DNA of 64,000 bases, from positions 928,001-992,000 of the forward strand of contig CAVPZX010000002.1 of assembly GCA_963710375.1 (NCBI GenBank). The letters are read 5' to 3'. The stretch comes from Nitrospirota bacterium. GTDB lineage: Bacteria; Nitrospirota; Thermodesulfovibrionia; Thermodesulfovibrionales; Dissulfurispiraceae. A program made the translations under genes and the position numbers. Of the stretch, positions 33,278 through 45,907 are shown piece by piece; positions within the stretch are counted from its first letter, which is position 1, and every line of letters begins with the position of its first letter. The notes below the pieces were generated by a model that saw nothing but the letters and a program-made list of their open reading frames with translations, was not told the origin of the DNA and made no database searches.

Positions 33278-33862
33278 TGCGCTACTACTTATGCCGAATT
33301 GTTTAAGACATGATTTTAGTGCGTTCAGGGGCAATCCGATTACATTAAAATAATCACCTTCGATCCTGCGGACAAAAATAGATCCGAGCCCCTGTATAGC
33401 ATATGCCCCGGCTTTGTCCAGTGGCTCCCCGCTCCTTACGTATGCATTGATTTCCCTCATGGTGAGCTTATCGAAATACACCTTTGTTTCAACTGACCGT
33501 GAAATGCACTTTCCGGTGCGGGTGTCGATAATAGTAAAACCGGTAATGACTTTATGCACTCTGCCGCTGAGGGCTCCAAGCATCTCCCTGGCTCGAACAG
33601 GCGTATTGGGCTTTCCCATAATCTTGTTCCTGAGGATAATGAATGTGTCAGCAGCGATAATAACGGCGTCACGGTATTTTCCGGCAGCGATGCGGGCCTT
33701 TTTTTCAGATAAAACCCTCGACAGTCTGCGTGGAGATAAGCGGATATTCATGTTCTCTTCGCAAATGACTGGATCAACTTTAAAAGGCAAGCCGGTCAAC
33801 CGCAATAGATCTCTTCTTCGCTGCGACGCAGACGCAAGTATGATTTGTCTTGTCCTATGCAT
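33269..33862 (-). CDS. maf: Maf family nucleoside-triphosphate pyrophosphatase
   Basis: IILASASQRR, IAADT, GKP, LDKAGAYAIQG, NVIGLP. Confidence 0.9.
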   Translation of the reverse strand: MHRTRQIILASASQRRRDLLRLTGLPFKVDPVICEENMNIRLSPRRLSRVLSEKKARIAAGKYRDAVIIAADTFIILRNKIMGKPNTPVRAREMLGALSGRVHKVITGFTIIDTRTGKCISRSVETKVYFDKLTMREINAYVRSGEPLDKAGAYAIQGLGSIFVRRIEGDYFNVIGLPLNALKSCLKQFGISSSAHY

Positions 33863-35046
33863 ACTGGCCTGCCGCATAACCTGAAGACCACGCCCACTGC
33901 AGGTTATAGCCTCCCAGCTGCCCCGTCACATCAATGACCTCACCGGCAAAATAGAGGCCATGCACTTTTTTGGATTCCATGGTTTTTGACGAGAGTTCGT
34001 CAGTATCCACCCCCCCTGCCGTGACTTCTGCTGTACTGTAGTCTTCAGTCCCGGCAGGAATAATTTCCCAGTTATGGATATGTCGTGAGACCTTTAACAG
34101 CTCCCTTTTGTTATATCGGCATATCGGCCTTAAATAACCATATCGCTCACACCAATAACGCGCAAACCGTTTGGGCAGGAATTGAGAAAGCAGTGTAGGT
34201 ATTTCCATTGTGCTGTGCTGTTTTGACTCAAATACTTCCTGCACATCGATTGCAGGTACCAAATCGATTGCAAGGGCATCACCCTTGTTCCAGTAAGCTG
34301 AAGCCTGGAGCATGGCAGGACCGCTCAGCCCTCTATGCGTAAACAGTATGCCGCCCTGAAACTCCTTCCTGTTGCATCTGACAAGGGCTTCAAAAGAAAT
34401 ACCGCTTAATTCACCGAAACCGGCTGAATCCGGCGGGCCGAAGACAAACGGGACCAGTGCAGGCTTCACTTCAATAACATTAATGCCGAACTGTCGGGCT
34501 ATCTTGTAACCCAATCCTGTTGCGCCGAGTTTGGGATATGACAATCCACCGGTAGCGGCCACCAGGGAAGTGGAAATAAATGTCCCCTTATCAGTGATAA
34601 CAGTAAACGCCTGCTCCTTGCCTACAGAAGAGATATGGCAGTTTAATAGCACTTGTGCTCCGGCTTCGGAGCATTCTTCGGCGAGCATTTTTAGTATTTC
34701 AAGAGAGGCTCCTAACGCAGAACAGTTGCCCTTGTTCGCGTTCTTCATAAGCAATGCCGTGCCTCTCCAGCATCGCGATAAAATCATGCACACTAAAACG
34801 GGCCAGTGCGGATTTACAGAAACGGGGGTTGCGTGATATATAGTTATGATGGTCTGCTGCGGTATTGCTGAAGTTGCAGCGGCCGCCTCCTGAGATGCGT
34901 ATCTTTTTCCCTATGCTGCCGGCATGATCGGCAACCAGAACCGACCGGCCTCTTTTGCCCGATTCAATTGCAGCCATAAGCCCTGCTGCGCCGGCTCCGA
35001 TGACAATAGTATCATAAACAGTTACTGCAGTTTCACCTTTTGCCAC
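33855..35046 (-). CDS. HI0933/YhiN/BaiN-family flavoprotein; one-base insertion at ~34708, probably an artefact
   Basis: N-part IGAGAAG, GKKIRISGGGRCNF; C-part ATGGLSYPKLGATG, LFTHRGLSGP, GQLGGYNLQWAWSSG; joined by reading AGCCT as AGCT on the minus strand. Confidence 0.85.
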
Positions 35047-36022: not shown

Positions 36023-37198
36023 TTACCGCCTTCCGCCACCACCGCCATGGAATCCTCCTCCGCCGCCACCACCTCGGGCACCCCCACCAGCGCCAATGGA
36101 ACTTCCGCCTGCATGACCACCACTAACCTGGCCGGCACTTGTGCGGCTTTGGAATCCGCGGTCACTCGCTGCACGCTCAGACTGGCTGTTAACAGAGTGC
36201 TCAAAGGCACTTGACCGAGTTCCGGCAGGGTTTTGAGTCACCCCATAGCCTCGTAATTCCCGGCCTGCCGCTGCCCCGGCACTGACGGGACGTTCCCGGC
36301 CTGCCGCTGCCCCGGCACTGACGGGACGTTCCCGGCCTGCCGCTGCCCCGGCACTGACGGGACGTTCCCGGCCTGCCACTGCCCCGGCACCGACGGGATG
36401 TTCCCGGCCTGCCGCTGCCCCGGCACCGACGGGATGTTCCCGGCCTCCACTGACAAAAGCCTGCGCCCCGCCGCGAAATCTGTTAGCGGGGTCAATTCGC
36501 CCTATCTTGCCTGTTGCGGGATTGTGGAAATGATTGGTGATAAACCCATCGTGCCCACGGTGATGATGGTCATGATGTCCATGACCATGAATACTGACGT
36601 TAAAGTCTGCCAGGACAAAGAACCCTGGAAACCAGAAATCCGCCCACCAAAACGGATAAGGAACCCATGTATACAAATATGCATCATCAGGAGGCGGAGC
36701 ATAGTAGGTGACCACAGGGGGCCCCTCAGTGGAGTAATAATTCTCTATTGCTGTTGTGTCAGGATAACTCGGCGCAGCTGCCTCAGCAGGCCCATTACCT
36801 GAAATATCCGGCGTTATAGGCAGGTTTTCCCCACTTATAATCCCCTGAAATGTCTTCAGTGCCGCATCTTTCCCAACACCTAATTTCCCTGAGTCTGCCG
36901 CTGCACTAATAGATGCCTGCAATTCTCCGATAATATCAGGAGTGGCCGGGTAATCGGCGATCCAGCCGTTGCGCGGACTTATGCCGATTGAGCTCAACTC
37001 GTCCTCAGCCTCAGCCTCGTTTTTTGGCGCACCCACCTTAAGTCCCTCAGCCAGATCTATAGCCAAGTCTCCTTCTCTGATCAACGCCTGTGATAATAAG
37101 GTATTTGCTGCTGACGGTTGGTCATCCTGAGCACTTGATAAGGTTGGGATCAAAGCAGTAGCCATTAATATAATTAGTGAAATTAACAAGCCTTTCAT
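36023..37198 (-). CDS. Exported hypothetical protein with His-rich segment, 12-aa tandem repeats and Gly-rich tail
   Basis: Signal peptide, GISPRNGWIADYP, YYAPPP...WVPYPFWW, HGHGHHDHHHRGH, five GRE(H/R)PV(G/S)AGA(A/V)A repeats. Confidence 0.7.
   Translation of the reverse strand: MKGLLISLIILMATALIPTLSSAQDDQPSAANTLLSQALIREGDLAIDLAEGLKVGAPKNEAEAEDELSSIGISPRNGWIADYPATPDIIGELQASISAAADSGKLGVGKDAALKTFQGIISGENLPITPDISGNGPAEAAAPSYPDTTAIENYYSTEGPPVVTYYAPPPDDAYLYTWVPYPFWWADFWFPGFFVLADFNVSIHGHGHHDHHHRGHDGFITNHFHNPATGKIGRIDPANRFRGGAQAFVSGGREHPVGAGAAAGREHPVGAGAVAGRERPVSAGAAAGRERPVSAGAAAGRERPVSAGAAAGRELRGYGVTQNPAGTRSSAFEHSVNSQSERAASDRGFQSRTSAGQVSGGHAGGSSIGAGGGARGGGGGGGFHGGGGGRR
36257..36446. repeat. 36-bp coding tandem repeat, 5 full units plus a partial unit
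   Basis: Unit TTCCCGGCCTGCCGCTGCCCCGGCACTGACGGGACG head-to-tail with no spacers; in frame in ORF 36023-37198. Confidence 0.9.
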
Positions 37199-37243
37199 CT
37201 TTGCCCCTCCCCGCTCCATAACTATATTATAGTATAAATCCCA

Positions 37244-38029: not shown

Positions 38030-38513
38030 CTAAGCCCCCTCTTCATCTACGCCATCTTTTTCCTGCTCCTCTATAAACCTGAATAGCTTTTCCATGGCAT
38101 CGATCTGCTGAAGCTTTTTATTCCTTCCCGATAGCCTTATGATGTCCTCTATAAAATCGGGCGACTCCGGCATTTCAGCATTATAGACGCCCCTCCTGGT
38201 CACTTTATATCCTTCTATTTCGGTCTTTAGGGCACTATCGGATGCTACAATCTTCCGAACAGCAATATAGCCGTTCTTCACATTAAGAAGCGAGATTGCG
38301 GAACGCAAATAGCTTATTGCTTCATTCCAGTCTCTCGAGTGAAAAATCTGCTTCGGCATGAATCAGGACCTCGTTCTCTTTGCTGACATCAATAGTACTT
38401 ATCGAGTTGTCTTTTGAAAGATTCCATAACCTGTCGCTGATATCCTGCCCGATCTTATTGCATGCGAATGGCAACTTGATATAATACGCTCTGATTTCCC
38501 TGAACAACTCCAT
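38030..38513 (-). CDS. Hypothetical protein (~160 aa), split into two ORFs by a one-base insertion at ~38331
   Basis: ORFs 38322-38513 and 38030-38359 fuse (…DFSLESWNEAISYLR…) if AGACT is read as AGCT. Confidence 0.55.
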
Positions 38514-38611: not shown

Positions 38612-38944
38612 ATGAAAAGAGATAAGTCGATATATGATCTGCAGGCGGAAATCTGTAAGATACTTGCCAGCCCCAAGAGGATAGAAATCATAACCGCACT
38701 GAAGGACGGCGAAAAGACTGTTAGTGAGATCATTGAAGTTCTCGGTATCCCCAAGGCAAACGCATCGCAGCACCTTGCTCTGATGAAGGTCAAGGGCATA
38801 TTGAATAGCAGGAGAGAAGGCGTTAATGTCTACTACAGCATTGCCAACCCTAAAGTGATTCAGGCATGCGGTCTGATGAGAGAGGTTCTTTCCGACATTA
38901 TGGTTGAAAGAGGTAAAATGGCCTCTCTGATGGCCCGATCATGA
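38612..38944 (+). CDS. ArsR/SmtB-family transcriptional regulator
   Basis: KILASPKRIEII, EKTVSEI, ASQHLALMK, RREGVNVYYSI. Confidence 0.9.
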   Translation: MKRDKSIYDLQAEICKILASPKRIEIITALKDGEKTVSEIIEVLGIPKANASQHLALMKVKGILNSRREGVNVYYSIANPKVIQACGLMREVLSDIMVERGKMASLMARS

Positions 38945-38983
38945 GTACTCCAACTCTCTCTTAGAGCTTATGACCTCTATCTT

Positions 38984-39295
38984 TCAGAAGCATCCCGCAA
39001 GCCTTCTAAAAAAAGTGGTTATGTTCTTGTCGTCCTTTGTTATGTATCTTACTTTGACGTCGTCGCCTAACCTGATACGCTTATCCTCGAATTTATCCAA
39101 TGTTTTTTTATCCTCAACAGTTACAGGAATGTCCTTGCCTTCATAAGTTGCTATAACTGCATTTCCTGTACTCAGGTCTATACTCTTAACCGTGCCGTTT
39201 ATGGCTTGCTCTTCAGCAAAAACCGGCCCTGCCATGACAGCGATAAGTAAAAGTGCTATTGATGACCATATCAAAGACTGTTGCGTTCTCATCAA
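38984..39295 (-). CDS. Small exported beta-rich protein ending in ...AGCF
   Basis: Signal peptide (…PVFA), GTVKSID…, RLGDDVKVRY, single Cys next to the C-terminus; RBS AAGGAG. Confidence 0.7.
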   Translation of the reverse strand: MMRTQQSLIWSSIALLLIAVMAGPVFAEEQAINGTVKSIDLSTGNAVIATYEGKDIPVTVEDKKTLDKFEDKRIRLGDDVKVRYITKDDKNITTFFRRLAGCF

Positions 39296-39331
39296 ACACT
39301 CCTTTTGGCGCTTAATTGACTTATAGCCAAT

Positions 39332-41138
39332 TCAGTGGATAAATTTTCCCTTTTCGTAATCCCCTTTTAACTTCTCGTATAAAACCCTGTTCTTAATTGC
39401 AGGCAGTGCGAAATTACCACCGAGATTCCATTTGTCACTGAACGGTCCGAGGCCTTTGGGCATAGGACCTCTGTCAGGCCCTTTAAAGTCAACAACCCTG
39501 AGTCCCTTTTCATCCGCAATTATTGTGTACTGCCCGTCCTCTACATCCTTATAAGACCCTGATCCAAAGCCTGTGGTCACCTTCTGTGAAGTTGAGGAAT
39601 GACAGACTCTCGCACGTCCTGGATCTGCCTGTGGCGTGGGCCACCCTGTCAACATTAAGCCAGACCATAGTATCGTGGTCATTGTCATCAAGGTTTTTTA
39701 CAAGACCGGTAATGGCGAAGGAATCATTAGATACATAGCCCCTGTTTATTTTTACATCCGGCCTGTTCCTGAACATGAGTCTCTTTGAAAATTTGACCTC
39801 TTCTGCCTTTACATTGCCTGACGTGTGGGGAACGACATGCACCGGTATCCAATTGCCCTGTCTGTTTTTCACAAGCACAGGCGGGATGGCATCTACATAG
39901 TAGTCCTGTATCCTGGTGAGCGGGTTCTCTTTCCCTCTATTTCCAGTTGCTGTCCAGAAATTGAGAGCATATCCCCCTATTAGCGCTGTATGGCATGAAG
40001 CGCAATCCACCTTCCTGTGAGGCCCCTTTTTGTATGCCGCGACTATTTTGCTATGGCATTTTGAGCAGTCAACATCCCGCCTGAGATCCCCGTGTATCCC
40101 TGTTTTCCTGTTCGGCTCGTGGCAATCAACGCATCCGATATTATTGCGCAAATGCACGTCTGTCATGCCTGCCAACATCTCTTTCCCTTTTGGAGTCGCC
40201 TGTGTAAAATCAGCCCTGAAATAGCCGTCGCCCCTTCTCCTCTCCATAGGGCCTGCATGACAGCTAAAAGAGCGCCCGCCGCCGTAACATGAAAGAGAGA
40301 CAGGTTTGCTTGAAAATGTATGCAACCCTTTGCCCGGTGTACCCGGCTCTTGCTTTTGCGGATTGAAGTGACAGTCAAGACAGCCGACGTGGCATTGGTT
40401 GCAGGTCCTCTGCAAATTGTGAGAGGCCTTCTCAGGCAGAGGCATAGTAGAATGGTCGTCAAATACTTTTATATTCTCATCCGTGAACTTGTCCTGATAG
40501 GGTTTTGAAAGAGGGCCTGTCCACAAGCCACAGCTCTGCGGTCCGCTAGGGCCTGTCCATGTCACGTATTGGCTCTGGGTATGTGCGCCTGTTGCGCCGC
40601 CCATAGCGCTTTTAAGGAAACTTTTAACTATATCTGCATGGCAGGTACCGCATGTCCGGTCTGCAAGCACCGGATTAAAAGCGAGCGTTGACGGGTTTTT
40701 ATCTTGCCATATAATAAGCCTGTAATCGTAATTGTCTTTGATTTCGCCTTTGGCTGTCAGGAGTTTGGGACTTAGTTGGGTCGCTCTGTTCTCCCCCCTT
40801 GGCTCAAGTATAGGCCAATCCTTCAGGTCCTCAGGGTTCATCTTGTTTCTTGCAGTTGCATTCCATTTCGCTCCCACCGCAATTAATGTCAGGAGCCCCT
40901 TATGGGCCTCCTCCTTAGTTACAGTCAGTGGATCACCCATGTGGCAACTGATGCAGGATGCCGGCATCCCCGATTGATCGCGAACGTCTTCAGATGTCAG
41001 GATGAACTGCGGGCAGCCCAAATCCTTCATCTTGCCGGCATTGCTGTGGCATTCGATACAACTGTCGTCAGCGTAGTCATTAACTCCAAATATTAAGAGT
41101 GCGAATATTATCAATAAAGACAATTTTGGGTTATTCAT
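39332..41138 (-). CDS. Multiheme c-type cytochrome (9 CxxCH plus one CX8CH); one-base insertion at ~39606, probably an artefact
   Basis: Signal peptide; CIECH, CISCH, CGTCH, CNQCH, CLDCH, CVDCH, CSKCH, CASCH; CESCH restored by joining ORFs 39549-41138 and 39332-39691. Confidence 0.85.
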
Positions 41139-41356
41139 ACCGCTGCCCTCCGTATAGCATGATTAATGGAACGTTAACGCAACGCCTCTCCAACCCATGT
41201 TTATTCTGAACAGATTAAATGTTTCGAAACTCATTAATTTTAATTATATCAAAATACTTGGGTGGAATAAACTTGCCTTGACACTAGTTAAGAATCTTCT
41301 TGACTTATTAGTTGCATATATTCTAAACTGCCGAAAAATCAGCAAGGGGGTGTGGC

Positions 41357-43000
41357 ATGAAACGAAAGATTTTAGGGGTGCTTCTTTCGCTTTCTCTTTT
41401 GCTCCCTCTCCCGGCATTCGCTGTTGATCAGGGCGACCTTATGCAAAAGATCGACGCGCTTTCAAAAGAGCTCGATCGCCTGAAACAGCAGATGACGGAG
41501 TTGCAGAGCAAAGAGACCGTGAAAGAGGAAAGGATCACAAATGTCGAAAAGAAGACCGAGGACGTAGAGAAGAAAACCGACGAACAGGCAGCAGCGTCTT
41601 CCTGGTTTACGATCGGTGGAGATTACAGGGCGAGACTGGATTCGCTTCACGGCAGTACAGCCTTGCTCCTGCCTCAAAACCATGTATTGTTCGGTGTCAA
41701 TCCCACTTCAACTAAAGTAGGCAACGACACTATCCTTACCAACAGATTCGGACTGAACCTGACCGCAAGGGCCACCGAAGATGTGCTGGTCCATGCAAGG
41801 CTCCTTATGTACAAAGTATGGGGGGAAGAGACCGCAGCACCAACTGGTGCGAACAACACTCCCGGCGGCGGTGCATTCTTCGCTGACAAGTTTTATGTCT
41901 TTGACGGCAATGTCGCGCACATACCTGAGGATAACACTCTGAGGGTTGACCAGGCATTCGCATCATGGAGCAACATATTAGGCCAGCCTTTATGGTTTTC
42001 CATCGGAAGGAGACCGTCCACAGGAGGCGTTCCGACTAATCTGCGTCAAAATACAGAGAAGATCGGCACTGCCGGAACACCCGGCTTGCTGATAGACTAC
42101 GCGTTTGATGGCGGAACTATTGGAGTTGCCCCTGATATCGATGCCCTTCCCGGTGCATATGCCAAGTTCTGCTTCGGTAAGGGCTTTGACAGCGGATTCA
42201 GTACCGGTAACAGCACTGATGACATGAAAGACGTTTGGATGATCGGGTTCCAGGTTGCGCCAGTTGACACAGATAATCTCCATATCGAATTGCAGTACAA
42301 CAGGGCATTGGATATATTCGCGTTCCCTGAAAACAGCAGTTTTAATTTTAACGGAACTATTCCGGCCGGGACTTTTGGACCGGGTTCTCCTGCCCTTCTG
42401 ACTCCTGTGAGTATTGCGAACCAAAATATTGGAGATATCGATCAGTTAGGCGCTGTAATCATGGGTAAAATCGACAAACTCGGTATCGGCGACCTAAACC
42501 TATTCCTTTCTCCTGCTGTTAGTGAAACACATCCAAACGGCAGATTCATAGATTTTGGCGGAGGGGCCCATTACGGGCTGATGTGGGATACTGTAACAGG
42601 CACACCGATGAAGTCTTACACGGGAGAAGCGATATATTTGGGTGGAAGGTATGATATTGCCAGTACAGGGACAAAGATCGGGCTTGAATATAACCATGGC
42701 TCGAAAAACTGGATTACCTTTACCCCGGCAAGTGACGACTTGTGGACCAGCAAGCTCGGTGCAAGAGGCAGTGTGTATGAAGCGTACGTTATTCAGGGAC
42801 TCAACAAGAAACCCATTGCAAGGAGAGGAAATGCCTTCTTCAGACTTGGGTATCAATATTACAGCTTTACCGATACTGGAAGCAACAACTGGGTGGGGGG
42901 CGCTCAAAGCATAAAAAGCCTGAATACCAATTCTGTACAGTTGTTTGCGCCTCTTAAGAACGCAAGTGATATTTACTTAACCTTCGACGTAGTATTCTAA
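41357..43000 (+). CDS. DUF3373-like outer-membrane beta-barrel protein
   Basis: Signal peptide, N-terminal coiled coil, GGDYRARLDS, TNRFGLNL, SIGRRPSTGG, GLEYNHGSKNWITFTP, terminal YLTFDVVF. Confidence 0.75.
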   Translation: MKRKILGVLLSLSLLLPLPAFAVDQGDLMQKIDALSKELDRLKQQMTELQSKETVKEERITNVEKKTEDVEKKTDEQAAASSWFTIGGDYRARLDSLHGSTALLLPQNHVLFGVNPTSTKVGNDTILTNRFGLNLTARATEDVLVHARLLMYKVWGEETAAPTGANNTPGGGAFFADKFYVFDGNVAHIPEDNTLRVDQAFASWSNILGQPLWFSIGRRPSTGGVPTNLRQNTEKIGTAGTPGLLIDYAFDGGTIGVAPDIDALPGAYAKFCFGKGFDSGFSTGNSTDDMKDVWMIGFQVAPVDTDNLHIELQYNRALDIFAFPENSSFNFNGTIPAGTFGPGSPALLTPVSIANQNIGDIDQLGAVIMGKIDKLGIGDLNLFLSPAVSETHPNGRFIDFGGGAHYGLMWDTVTGTPMKSYTGEAIYLGGRYDIASTGTKIGLEYNHGSKNWITFTPASDDLWTSKLGARGSVYEAYVIQGLNKKPIARRGNAFFRLGYQYYSFTDTGSNNWVGGAQSIKSLNTNSVQLFAPLKNASDIYLTFDVVF

Positions 43001-43007
43001 GCCGCAC

Positions 43008-43041
43008 GAAAGGGAAGGGGCTGAGAAGCCCCTTCCCTTTC
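43008..43041 (+). terminator. 15-bp stem hairpin after the DUF3373-like gene (terminator or mRNA-stabilising stem)
   Basis: GAAAGGGAAGGGGCT-GAGA-AGCCCCTTCCCTTTC. Confidence 0.6.
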
Positions 43042-43055
43042 CATGAGGAAAAACC

Positions 43056-43595
43056 ATGAGACTGTCTCGCTGTCCAGCTATCAAACAGATATGTATTGTA
43101 TTTTTTGTCATACTTTTTTTTGTGTTAGTCATCAATCTTATTGCCGGTTCCATATTTGCCGCGGTATCAGATCCAGCTGCTCCTGATTTCACGCTTCCTG
43201 ATGTCCACGGTAAAAAAGTGTCGCTTTCCGAATTCAAAGGGAATGTAGTTATACTGAATTTCTGGGCAACATGGTGCGGGCCCTGCAAGGCAGAGATGCC
43301 CTCGCTTAATAATCTCTATCTGGAATTTAAGAACAAAAGGCTTGTGGTACTGGCGATTTCAGTTGACCCAACTGAAAGACCCGTGCTCTCATTCATAGCA
43401 GACAAGAAACTGGCACTTCCTGTATTAATGGATAAGACCAAGGAGGTCTACTTCGACAGTTATGCTGTAATGGGTCTGCCGACAACATTCATCATAGACA
43501 AAAACGGCGTACTCATACAAAAGATTTTGGGCGAGCAAGATTGGGACTCTCCCCAAATGAAAGAAAAAATTCTTAACCTTTTGACAGGGAGGTAA
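43056..43595 (+). CDS. TlpA/ResA-family thiol-disulfide reductase
   Basis: APDFTL, LNFWATWCGPCKAEMPSL, GLPTTFIIDKNG; N-terminal membrane anchor. Confidence 0.9.
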   Translation: MRLSRCPAIKQICIVFFVILFFVLVINLIAGSIFAAVSDPAAPDFTLPDVHGKKVSLSEFKGNVVILNFWATWCGPCKAEMPSLNNLYLEFKNKRLVVLAISVDPTERPVLSFIADKKLALPVLMDKTKEVYFDSYAVMGLPTTFIIDKNGVLIQKILGEQDWDSPQMKEKILNLLTGR

Positions 43596-43598
43596 GGA

Positions 43599-43961
43599 GT
43601 GAAAAAAAGCATGGAAACAGGAGTTTTTCTCCTTATGTGCATCATGCTCGCAGCACTGTTTACATCGGGGTGCACTGATACGTTTGTCGTTACCAAAGAC
43701 GGCCAGAGTTATTTTTTCGGGAGCAACAGAGAGGGCTTTCAAAAAATGCTTTGCGATTCCGGCGATCTGAAAACCATCCTTGCAGATACACAATTGCCTT
43801 CAAATTTAAAAGAGAATCTCTACAAATTTAATTGCTCAGCTTCCGACCATTCACAAGAAAAGGTCAAAGAAATATATACATCGATGACGCCTGAACAAAG
43901 GCGGGACCTGCGCCTCACTTTTCAGAAGCACGGCTATGATATCAACTACATGGTGTGTTGA
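43599..43961 (+). CDS. Hypothetical lipoprotein
   Basis: Lipobox-like FTSGC; three further Cys including the C-terminal residue (YMVC). Confidence 0.65.
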   Translation: MKKSMETGVFLLMCIMLAALFTSGCTDTFVVTKDGQSYFFGSNREGFQKMLCDSGDLKTILADTQLPSNLKENLYKFNCSASDHSQEKVKEIYTSMTPEQRRDLRLTFQKHGYDINYMVC

Positions 43962-44078: not shown

Positions 44079-44921
44079 ATGAAAACACTAATGCAATCCC
44101 AAAATGTCCGGGCGCTGACAGATCAGGCGCGAATTGTCAGAATTGAAATCCTAAAGATGCTCACTGCTTCAGGGTCCGGTCATACAGGCGGTTCTCTCTC
44201 CGCAGCTGATATCGTGACAGCGCTCTACTTTTACAAAATGAAGCACCGACCAAAAGATCCCTCATGGCAGGGAAGGGACCGCTTCATTCTCTCAAAAGGC
44301 CATGCCGCCCCTCTTCTTTATGCCGTTTTAGCTTTGTCAGGTTATTTTGATAAATCAATCCTTGGCAATCTCAGGCAAATCGGCTGTCCGCTGCAGGGGC
44401 ACCCCTCGTCTAAACTTATTGAAGGAGTAGAGGTCTCTACAGGCTCTCTTGGACAAGGTCTCTCTATTGCAAACGGAATTGCTTTAGGGCTGCAGCTTGA
44501 TAAGAGTTCTTCCAGGGTTTATTGCCTTTTGGGCGACGGTGAGACCCAGGAAGGGCAGGTATGGGAGGCTGCCATGTCGGCAGGCCATTATATGCTCGAT
44601 AACCTTTGCGCCATAGTCGATGTCAACGGGCTTCAAATAGACGGCAAATGCGCAGATGTTATGAAGGTAGAGCCTATTGCAAAAAAATGGGAGTCCTTCA
44701 ACTGGCACGTGTTCGAAATAAACGGGCACGATATGGAAGAGATAGTAAAGGCGCTTAATGAGGCAGAAAAGATCAAGGGCAAGCCTTCGGTGATACTTGC
44801 CAGGACGGTTAAAAGCAAAGGCGTATCATTCTTCGAGGGCAAAGCAGAATACCACGGCGTAACACCGACGAAAGAGGAGCTTGAAAAGGCCCTCCTGGAG
44901 CTTGGTGAATATGGGAAGTAA
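44079..44921 (+). CDS. Transketolase, N-terminal (TPP-binding) subunit
   Basis: SGHTGGSLS, RDRFILSKGH, TGSLGQG, GDGETQEGQVWEA. Confidence 0.9.
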   Translation: MKTLMQSQNVRALTDQARIVRIEILKMLTASGSGHTGGSLSAADIVTALYFYKMKHRPKDPSWQGRDRFILSKGHAAPLLYAVLALSGYFDKSILGNLRQIGCPLQGHPSSKLIEGVEVSTGSLGQGLSIANGIALGLQLDKSSSRVYCLLGDGETQEGQVWEAAMSAGHYMLDNLCAIVDVNGLQIDGKCADVMKVEPIAKKWESFNWHVFEINGHDMEEIVKALNEAEKIKGKPSVILARTVKSKGVSFFEGKAEYHGVTPTKEELEKALLELGEYGK

Positions 44922-45907
44922 AGACAAAGTAACAGAAAACAAAGCACAGGGCAGCGACTTTTGCGGCCAATCGGTTGCCACCCGCGATGCGTATGGGTCA
45001 GCGCTGCTTGAATTGGGACGGCGCAATGAAAAGGTTGTCGTGCTTGACGCTGACCTGTCCGGTTCTACAAAAACAGCTAAATTTGCAAAGGCCTTTCCCA
45101 ACAGATTTTTTAATATGGGCATTGCGGAACAAGACATGATCGGTACAGCAGGCGGATTGTCGCTGACAGGTAAAATCCCTTTCGCCTCTACCTTTGCCGT
45201 GTTCGAAACAGGCCGCGCATGGGAGCAAATACGGCAGACCCTCTGCTATTCCGGGCTCAACGTAAAATTGGTTGCTACGCATGCCGGGATCACGGTCGGC
45301 GAGGATGGCGCATCACACCAGGCGCTTGAGGACATTGCCCTGATGAGGGTCATTCCCAATATGACTGTTATAGTGCCTTCCGACGGCTTCGAAACGACAC
45401 AAGTCATTGATGCGATTGCCGATTATAAACATCCCGTTTATGTTCGCCTTGGGAGGTCCAAGGTCCCGCCGGTCATGCCTGCAGATTACCGATTCGCTAT
45501 CGGCAAGGCGTTTACATTCAATATCGGCAGGGACGTCACGATCATTTCAACAGGCATAATGGTGTCAAAAGCACTCCAGGCCAAAGAACTCCTCCAAAAA
45601 AAGGGGCTGGATGCCGGTGTTATCAATATGTTCGACCATAAAGCCGCTCGATACGGATGCCGTATTGGAAGCTGCGAAATTCTCTAAATTGATCGTTACA
45701 GCCGAAGAGCATTCTGTTATAGGAGGCTTGGGCGGCGCGGTCTCCGAGTTCCTGTCAGAACACTACCCGACCCATGTGCTGAGAATAGGCACGCGTGATA
45801 CATTCGGATGCTCCGGCCCACCTGATGAACTGATAAAACTTTTCGGGCTGACCCCGGAGGATATTGTTAATGCTATAGATGGCTTTTTCCGGAAAGTACC
45901 GAGTTGA
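44911..45907 (+). CDS. Transketolase, C-terminal subunit; one-base insertion at ~45631
   Basis: ATRDAYG, NMGIAEQ, GEDGASHQ; the conserved VINMSTIKPLD is restored by removing one T from ATGTTCGACC; then EEHSVIGGLG. Confidence 0.85.

Follow-up and report, generated by a model that had tools for sequence, protein, structure and literature searches.

The window examined here is a stretch of 64,000 nucleotides from a Nitrospirota bacterium (GenBank assembly GCA_963710375.1, contig CAVPZX010000002.1) whose genome, G000 in the survey numbering used below, comprises 3.19 Mb in 9 contigs and is 98.8% complete. Between positions 38612 and 43961 the window carries a cluster of six genes (Table 1). A multiheme cytochrome c and a small exported protein form a leftward unit, an outer-membrane beta-barrel of the DUF3373 type (the porin), a thiol-disulfide oxidoreductase (TlpA) and a lipoprotein form a rightward one, and an ArsR repressor gene lies at the left end. 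All six open reading frames (ORFs) were found where an earlier reading of the letters (the original prediction) had placed them, each encodes one or more conserved cysteines, and close homologues carry the source labels Nitrospirota, Thermodesulfovibrionales and Dissulfurispiraceae. The cytochrome represents a family without a name, predicted to consist of ten-heme enzymes, and its modelled fold is that of the octaheme cytochrome Otr, and the cluster is tentatively read as a periplasmic sulfur-sulfur bond reductase.

Table 1. Genes and sites of the cluster; positions are those of the window.
Position	Strand	Feature	Evidence
38612..38944	+	ArsR/SmtB-family repressor, 110 amino acids, Cys16 and Cys86	PF01022 and NF033788 over cut-off
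38984..39292	-	Small exported protein, 102 amino acids, end AGCF; ExtJ-like, likely CusF-type oligonucleotide/oligosaccharide-binding (OB) fold	
39332..41138	-	Exported multiheme cytochrome c, about 601 amino acids, 9 CxxCH and 1 CX8CH, predicted Otr-like fold	
39606		Extra base, assembly artefact splitting the cytochrome gene	Absent from contigs of 4/4 runs
40530..40532	-	Codon of Cys203, invariant Cys outside the heme motifs	TGA in sister clade
40257..40289	-	C284-x8-C293-H294, predicted atypical heme motif corresponding to Otr heme 4	Invariance and hhalign
41310..41329		20-bp imperfect palindrome over the porin promoter, predicted ArsR operator	
41357..43000	+	DUF3373 outer-membrane beta-barrel, Omp50-related, one invariant Cys272, without heme motif	
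43056..43595	+	TlpA/ResA-like thiol-disulfide oxidoreductase, WCGPC	PF00578 and PF08534 over cut-off
43599..43961	+	Lipoprotein outside known families; lipobox Cys25, Cys52, Cys79, C-terminal Cys120	

As presented in the window, the cytochrome gene is broken into an ORF of 529 amino acids (8 CxxCH) and one of 119 amino acids in another frame. Base 39606 is absent from the contigs of all four public runs compared, which come from two studies and may include the run behind the window itself, and a relative with 87% identity, P0001, is an uninterrupted protein of 601 amino acids including the ninth CxxCH; the gene is thus intact in the organism and the frameshift is an assembly error. Position 40071, in the same gene, is A in the window and G in all four runs.

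The cytochrome passes Pfam cut-offs for generic heme domains only (PF22113, PF14522) and none of the NCBIfam cut-offs. The Otr model TIGR04315 (cut-off 375 bits) gave no match at E 0.01, the score with the model of five-heme MccSep/ExtKL, NF040886, does not reach its cut-off of 250 bits, and the ExtM and ExtN models stay far under their cut-offs (NF040943, 23.5 of 800 bits; NF040967, 24.1 of 200 bits). Among solved structures a single-sequence search found nothing below E 0.005 (best E 0.0056) and a profile search found partial matches to NrfA and MccA only. When a profile of 105 rows was compared with 1.84 billion representative sequences, 49 matches were obtained at E 1e-30, about 15 of them near full length, followed by unrelated multiheme proteins; a search for related loci returned three, two of which were spurious. 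The genome survey covered 401 genomes of the phylum, 144 of which encode members at E 1e-20, including 31 of the 34 genomes of the window's own bacterial family; the spread beyond the phylum, to Geobacteraceae, Calderihabitans and Hydrothermarchaeota, is taken from the source names of matches. Clades are those of a quick tree. Fusions or variants of the cytochrome (1156 amino acids, 14 CxxCH) occur beside YeeE/YedE-like, SoxB-like and pyrroloquinoline quinone (PQQ)-repeat genes (L088:4064-7534, L087, L090), and members of another clade lie near a protein of 87 amino acids, TlpA, a CcdA-like gene and lgt (L051, L071, L081, L085), with an ExtJ-like gene in three of these loci.

The original prediction saw in the cytochrome no resemblance to MtrA, NrfA or HAO; being unlike the known catalytic cytochromes holds for its sequence and fails for its fold. 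Structure searches used the AlphaFold model of P0001 (predicted local distance difference test, pLDDT, 90.8). In the VIA structural search the Shewanella Otr structure 1sp3 was retrieved at Z 10.9 (root-mean-square deviation 4.7, 260 aligned residues, model 155-589 against chain 15-440) and the next row at Z 3.1; Foldseek ranked 1sp3 at E 5.3e-5 and the next structure at 0.042, with low TM-scores (0.27/0.36). Identity to Otr in the structural alignments is 13-19%. As the only standout match, 1sp3 assigns the predicted fold to the Otr superfamily. The same correspondence appears in hhalign with an Otr alignment (probability 97.6), where C163, C246, C253, C284, C336, C358 and C379 are paired with Otr hemes 1-7; C509, the one motif left over, is C-terminal like heme 8 of Otr. 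The fourth of these motifs, aligned with Otr's fourth CxxCH, is the invariant CX8CH, its spacing being 8 in 101 of the 105 rows and 9 in 4. Two further CxxCH lie N-terminal to the Otr-equivalent eight, and therefore ten hemes are predicted, in agreement with the 9-10 sites counted originally. Outside the heme motifs five His are invariant and one further column is His or Met (105 rows), and three Met are conserved (M37 and M58 in 100/105 each, M179 in 104/105), of which M179 is aligned with an Otr His; these columns would provide nine residues as candidates for the distal positions of the ten hemes. Catalytic heme 2 of Otr is ligated by a conserved Lys, with a Cys nearby (bioRxiv 2023.04.20.537704, in part); in the cytochrome no Lys column exceeds 70/105 between residues 168 and 245. 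An Otr-like octaheme at L180:8069-9520 has Met in place of the Lys of Otr's GK motif and retains the FC motif.

Cys203 is invariant in 105/105 rows and in 15/15 more distant ones. Like the active-site Cys of Otr it lies in the segment between hemes 1 and 2, but 31-59 residues ahead of heme 2 as against 10 in Otr. One in-frame TGA is present in 49 of the 150 matches listed from phylum genomes, and in all 13 loci checked it stands within GPNN*G or GPQN*G (asterisk, TGA), corresponding to GPQSCG in the window (general motif GPxx[C/*]G). Coding is conserved on both sides of the TGA, its reading as selenocysteine (Sec) yields a whole protein of 634 amino acids, and a hairpin resembling a selenocysteine insertion sequence (SECIS), with a G-first loop, follows at the same offset in 13/13 of these loci, two different hairpins being used by two groups of Sec rows. 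The hairpin test, built on the generally known geometry of bacterial SECIS elements, was positive in 5/5 formate-dehydrogenase-like controls. The gene selA was found in 47/49 TGA genomes and in 28/29 Cys-type genomes as well (the search covered 80 of 109 intended genomes), so its presence does not discriminate. Taken together, the sister-clade TGA is likely a Sec codon and the cytochromes are a candidate selenoprotein family, one that is missing from the 119 families of prokaryotic selenoproteins tabulated in a 2026 review (PMC13188914, as far as available). In G000 neither selA nor dsrAB was found; since tRNA-Sec and three TGA-bearing molybdoenzyme genes are present, these are likely assembly gaps, and the two absences are not used as evidence. 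The Sec clade (L053-L068, L089, L191) consists of stand-alone genes, which encode 8 CxxCH and probably an N-terminal membrane anchor and were not found in G000 or G386.

The small protein shows an invariant G100 and C101 in 17/17 aligned members. The ExtJ model NF040942 matches 10 of these 17 weakly (23 bits for the window protein, cut-off 52.5), which makes it a distant ExtJ relative at most, and its neighbours in the Atlas are CusF/DUF5666 clusters at 0.92. Of the 19 other loci in the window's clade, 11 have its gene next to that of the cytochrome, the flank being short in 4 of the remaining 8; its gene adjoins a true Otr in 10 of 18 loci. Among 80 genomes searched, Otr over cut-off was present in 0/12 with an intact pair of small gene and decaheme cytochrome (G000 included) and in 6/9 clade genomes that lack the pair, counts in which kin are not independent. 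By analogy with SoxY, whose C-terminal Cys acts as a swinging arm, the small protein is proposed as a sulfur carrier. A Sec residue behind its Gly-Cys was considered and dropped, the stop being TGA in 8 of 13 loci and TAG or TAA in 5, with nothing conserved behind it.

The porin scores 436.7 bits with PF11853 (cut-off 26.1), ends in Phe (YLTFDVVF), matches the Omp50 structure 10aw at E 2.3e-6 and retains its one Cys in 23/23 homologues. DUF3373 proteins are included in a porin classification (PMC4827864, in part), and one was an abundant protein during thiosulfate disproportionation in one proteome table (PMC13490349, in part). TlpA scores 138.8 bits with the ResA model, below the cut-off of 170. 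The lipoprotein, with four invariant Cys in 25/25 aligned sequences, one of them the last residue, has no Pfam or NCBIfam match, and its model (pLDDT 86.4) no Foldseek match at E 0.001; its family occurs in 48 of the 401 genomes. TlpA is adjacent in 28 of 30 lipoprotein loci (the window's included) and the porin lies inside the 1.5-kb flank in 19, indicating that porin, TlpA and lipoprotein form a conserved operon. A hypothetical gene of 160 amino acids at 38030-38513, split in the window by an extra base at 38331 that is absent from 4/4 runs, is found intact and divergent from the porin operon in six loci of the same bacterial family.

In a distant family, 7 loci have the repressor gene immediately ahead of that of the porin, and the two Cys of the protein are invariant in 9/9 porin-linked orthologues, the window's included. 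It resembles SqrR and BigR in having two conserved Cys beside sulfur-linked genes, but their pair has one Cys in helix 2 and the other where helix 5 ends. As the helix-2 Cys of the SqrR type is aligned with Thr32, and its own Cys are at 16 and 86, ArsR does not carry the SqrR/BigR site; its score with the BigR model is 46.7 bits (cut-off 155). The 20-bp palindrome overlaps a consensus promoter match (TTGACT-18-TAAACT) and is the sole match within 4 mismatches in the window. It is identical in G386, differs by 1 mismatch in G242 and by 4 in G206, G024 and G123, and was thus found within four mismatches in 5/8 other ArsR loci as against 0/8 loci without ArsR. Repressor and site therewith track with the porin operon, and the site is the predicted ArsR operator. 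A weight matrix of the sites scanned over G000 gave 31.0 at the top (a circular result) and 22.0 next, with equally many weak matches in a shuffled contig; as there was no further convincing site, no regulon is proposed.

Conservation of the neighbourhood was a point on which the original prediction could have fallen, and it holds in part: of the 19 other loci in the window's clade, one has the cytochrome together with all five partners, and the parts recombine. Porin, small gene, cytochrome and MccSep stand together in three genomes (G342, G226, G401), and an arrangement of Otr, small gene and porin occurs in 7 loci. The distant genome G242 combines an Otr-like octaheme (TIGR04315 139 bits, under cut-off) with the small gene, the 20-bp site, ArsR, porin, TlpA and lipoprotein; G206 has the same set minus the cytochrome. 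The small gene accompanies ArsR and porin in G206, G242 and G123, and TlpA, lipoprotein and porin in G376. A SoxY-like gene with the end GGC directly precedes the cytochrome in 2 sister-clade loci, YeeE/YedE-like genes follow it in 1 locus and a SoxB-like gene is found in 1. These arrangements may be read as two recombining modules, a relay and an exchangeable slot for an Otr-fold cytochrome that is filled elsewhere by true Otr or an Otr-like octaheme. MccSep occurs in 29 of the 34 genomes of the bacterial family, but neither MccSep nor Otr over cut-off was found in G000 or G386, which would fit such a replacement.

On this basis the cluster is predicted, with somewhat less than even confidence, to be a periplasmic reductase of sulfur-sulfur bonds (polysulfide, persulfide or polythionate) with a thiol relay. 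The anion would enter through the DUF3373 porin and be loaded, in the manner of SoxY, on the small protein, whose C-terminal Cys would hold it for presentation to the cytochrome. There Cys203, replaced by a likely Sec in relatives, would lie at or ligate the C246/C249 heme, which occupies the position of Otr's catalytic heme, and would cleave the S-S bond with electrons arriving through the remaining nine hemes. Keeping the relay thiols reduced, or handing the sulfur on, may be the part of TlpA and the Cys-tailed lipoprotein, and ArsR would leave its 20-bp site once its cysteines are modified. The original prediction of a catalytic periplasmic chalcogen cytochrome, loosely like the Geobacter ext clusters, survives in outline: the Otr fold, the invariant Cys/Sec, the weak likeness to ExtJ and the adjacency to MccSep/ExtKL in three genomes all agree with it.

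Known systems share parts of this design. With Otr (1sp3, TIGR04315) the cytochrome has in common the predicted fold, the heme order and the position of the second (catalytic) heme, and in Nitrospirota also the small Gly-Cys-tailed neighbour and the DUF3373 porin; it differs in two extra N-terminal hemes, in heme 4 being CX8CH and in three conserved Met. MccSep of Geobacter sulfurreducens is a proven polysulfide reductase with a His/Cys heme and a catalytic Sec, required for growth on sulfur (PMC13510729, in part). Both are periplasmic multiheme cytochromes with Cys/Sec outside the heme motifs, but there is no sequence match, MccSep has five hemes as against ten, and it combines a heme-ligating Cys with Sec whereas the window's family has one invariant free Cys/Sec; its structure is not among the fold matches and may be absent from the structure libraries. 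In Geobacter, ExtI, ExtJ and ExtKL form a block of porin, small protein and selenocytochrome (PMC5877670, in part). The extHIJKLMNOPQS cluster resembles the window in its porin, ExtJ-like protein of about 100 amino acids and catalytic (seleno)cytochrome (same source, in part); in the window, however, the porin is DUF3373 and not ExtI, the rhodanese ExtH is lacking, none of ExtM, N, O, P, Q and S is over cut-off, and TlpA, the Cys-tailed lipoprotein and ArsR are added.

Several observations weigh against a sulfur-sulfur bond reductase assembled from all six genes. The full set recurs only in G386, a genome of the same genus, whose cytochrome is 59% identical to that of the window and not its sister in the quick tree, and six loci of the same bacterial family hold porin, TlpA and lipoprotein with neither cytochrome nor ArsR beside them. 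The small gene is absent within 1.5 kb of 12/12 other MccSep loci. Concerning the chemistry, hhalign does not pair Cys203 with the active-site Cys of Otr (NNFC), and the hairpin test is crude, as it also passes 15/40 Cys codons and misses 13/14 MccSep sites. Moreover, the window's gene belongs to a separate all-Cys clade, so that Sec bears on the chemistry of the family and not on the sequence of the window protein, and the small gene is missing from the surroundings of the Sec clade (0/18 loci), which has no neighbours in common. Otr itself in vitro mostly reduces nitrite and hydroxylamine, its physiological role being unsettled, and tetrathionate respiration of Shewanella ANA-3 did not depend on it (PMC12949373, in part).

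That activity of Otr suggests an enzyme of another kind, in which an open heme site reduces nitrite, hydroxylamine, nitric oxide (NO) or sulfite and Cys203 tunes or protects the site. The Otr fold and the weak profile matches to NrfA are consistent with it, nitrite and hydroxylamine being the strongest in-vitro activities of Otr and sulfite reduction having been proposed for it in vivo (PMC12949373, in part); but the Lys ligand of Otr is not conserved, the exchange of Cys203 for TGA points to a nucleophile, and three HAO-like octahemes are already encoded in G000, so we consider this proposal unlikely. Similarly improbable is the same thiol chemistry run in the opposite direction or reversibly, namely an oxidation of thiosulfate or carrier-bound sulfur like that of TsdA or SoxA, or a sulfur disproportionation. 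His/Met-ligated hemes have a higher potential, and M37, M58 and M179, the last aligned with an Otr His, could be axial ligands of such hemes. SoxY-like and SoxB-like neighbours in 3 loci would also suit an oxidation, and His/Cys hemes are catalytic in TsdA (PMC13510729, in part). Met ligation, however, is drawn from conservation, SoxA and TsdA are absent among the listed fold matches, and the neighbours MccSep and Otr are reductases.

The two units could instead have come together by chance, the porin operon serving envelope thiol upkeep or cytochrome maturation (e.g., of the CX8CH site) and the pair of cytochrome and small gene having been inserted beside it. The operon alone in six loci of the same bacterial family, full linkage in 1/19 loci and the maturation-type pairing of other cytochrome clades with TlpA and CcdA-like genes would all be expected in that case; what makes it unlikely is that the small gene travels with ArsR and porin in three genomes and with TlpA, lipoprotein and porin in a fourth, that the porin lies beside the small gene and either cytochrome or Otr in other lineages, and that the 20-bp site is placed between both units. 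A porin-cytochrome conduit for extracellular electron transfer, the alternative of the original prediction, is very unlikely. A ten-heme protein encoded next to a beta-barrel and a lipoprotein recalls such conduits, and MmcA of Methanosarcina, whose clade is likewise related to Otr and has extended heme motifs, conducts electrons with an Otr fold. MmcA, however, lacks the catalytic heme and its Lys (bioRxiv 2023.04.20.537704, in part, for these properties), whereas the window's family retains this heme together with the invariant Cys. In addition, the porin is DUF3373 with no match to an MtrB/PioB barrel, the cytochrome gives no match to DmsE/MtrA-type decahemes, the lipoprotein has no heme motif, cytochrome and porin are transcribed divergently, and G000 has a DmsE-type decaheme of its own, adjoining an MtrB/PioB-like gene and separate from the cluster.

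Other features were recorded in passing. G000 contains 22 ORFs with at least 3 CxxCH, among them an Hmc-like cluster and the HAO-like octahemes. Apparent frameshifts at 33855-35046 (a flavoprotein gene) and 44881-45907 (a transketolase C-terminal gene) are probably assembly errors too, and at 36023-37219 a His-rich protein of 398 amino acids with AAAGRERPV-type repeats is encoded upstream of a DUF2950 gene.

In the open literature (subscription journals and supplements lying outside the search) no description of the cytochrome family or of the cassette was found, although the cluster tables of PMC11492766 and PMC13510729 could list unnamed members. The motif CX8CH appeared in that search in two unrelated papers only, and a survey of Desulfuromonadia describes other atypical heme motifs, not CX8CH, in the part available (PMC11492766). 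With these findings the Otr fold gains a third branch, and a candidate selenoprotein family and an atypical heme motif, CX8CH, are added. A broader interpretation, possible though doubtful, is that this undescribed ten-heme seleno/thiol family of Otr fold, found almost throughout several Nitrospirota families and extending to Geobacteraceae, Calderihabitans and Hydrothermarchaeota, is a second solution to S-S cleavage by heme plus Cys/Sec, interchangeable with Otr as the catalytic head of a shared envelope sulfur relay. The shared parts would be the Cys-bearing DUF3373 porin, the ExtJ-like carrier, TlpA, the lipoprotein and the two-Cys ArsR. If this is true, the long-missing natural substrate of Otr would be carrier-bound sulfur. 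The shared small partner offers a direct test both of the role of ExtJ and of the physiological substrate of Otr. The phylum, in which the family occurs in 144 of the 401 genomes, includes sulfur reducers and disproportionators whose enzymology is unexplained.

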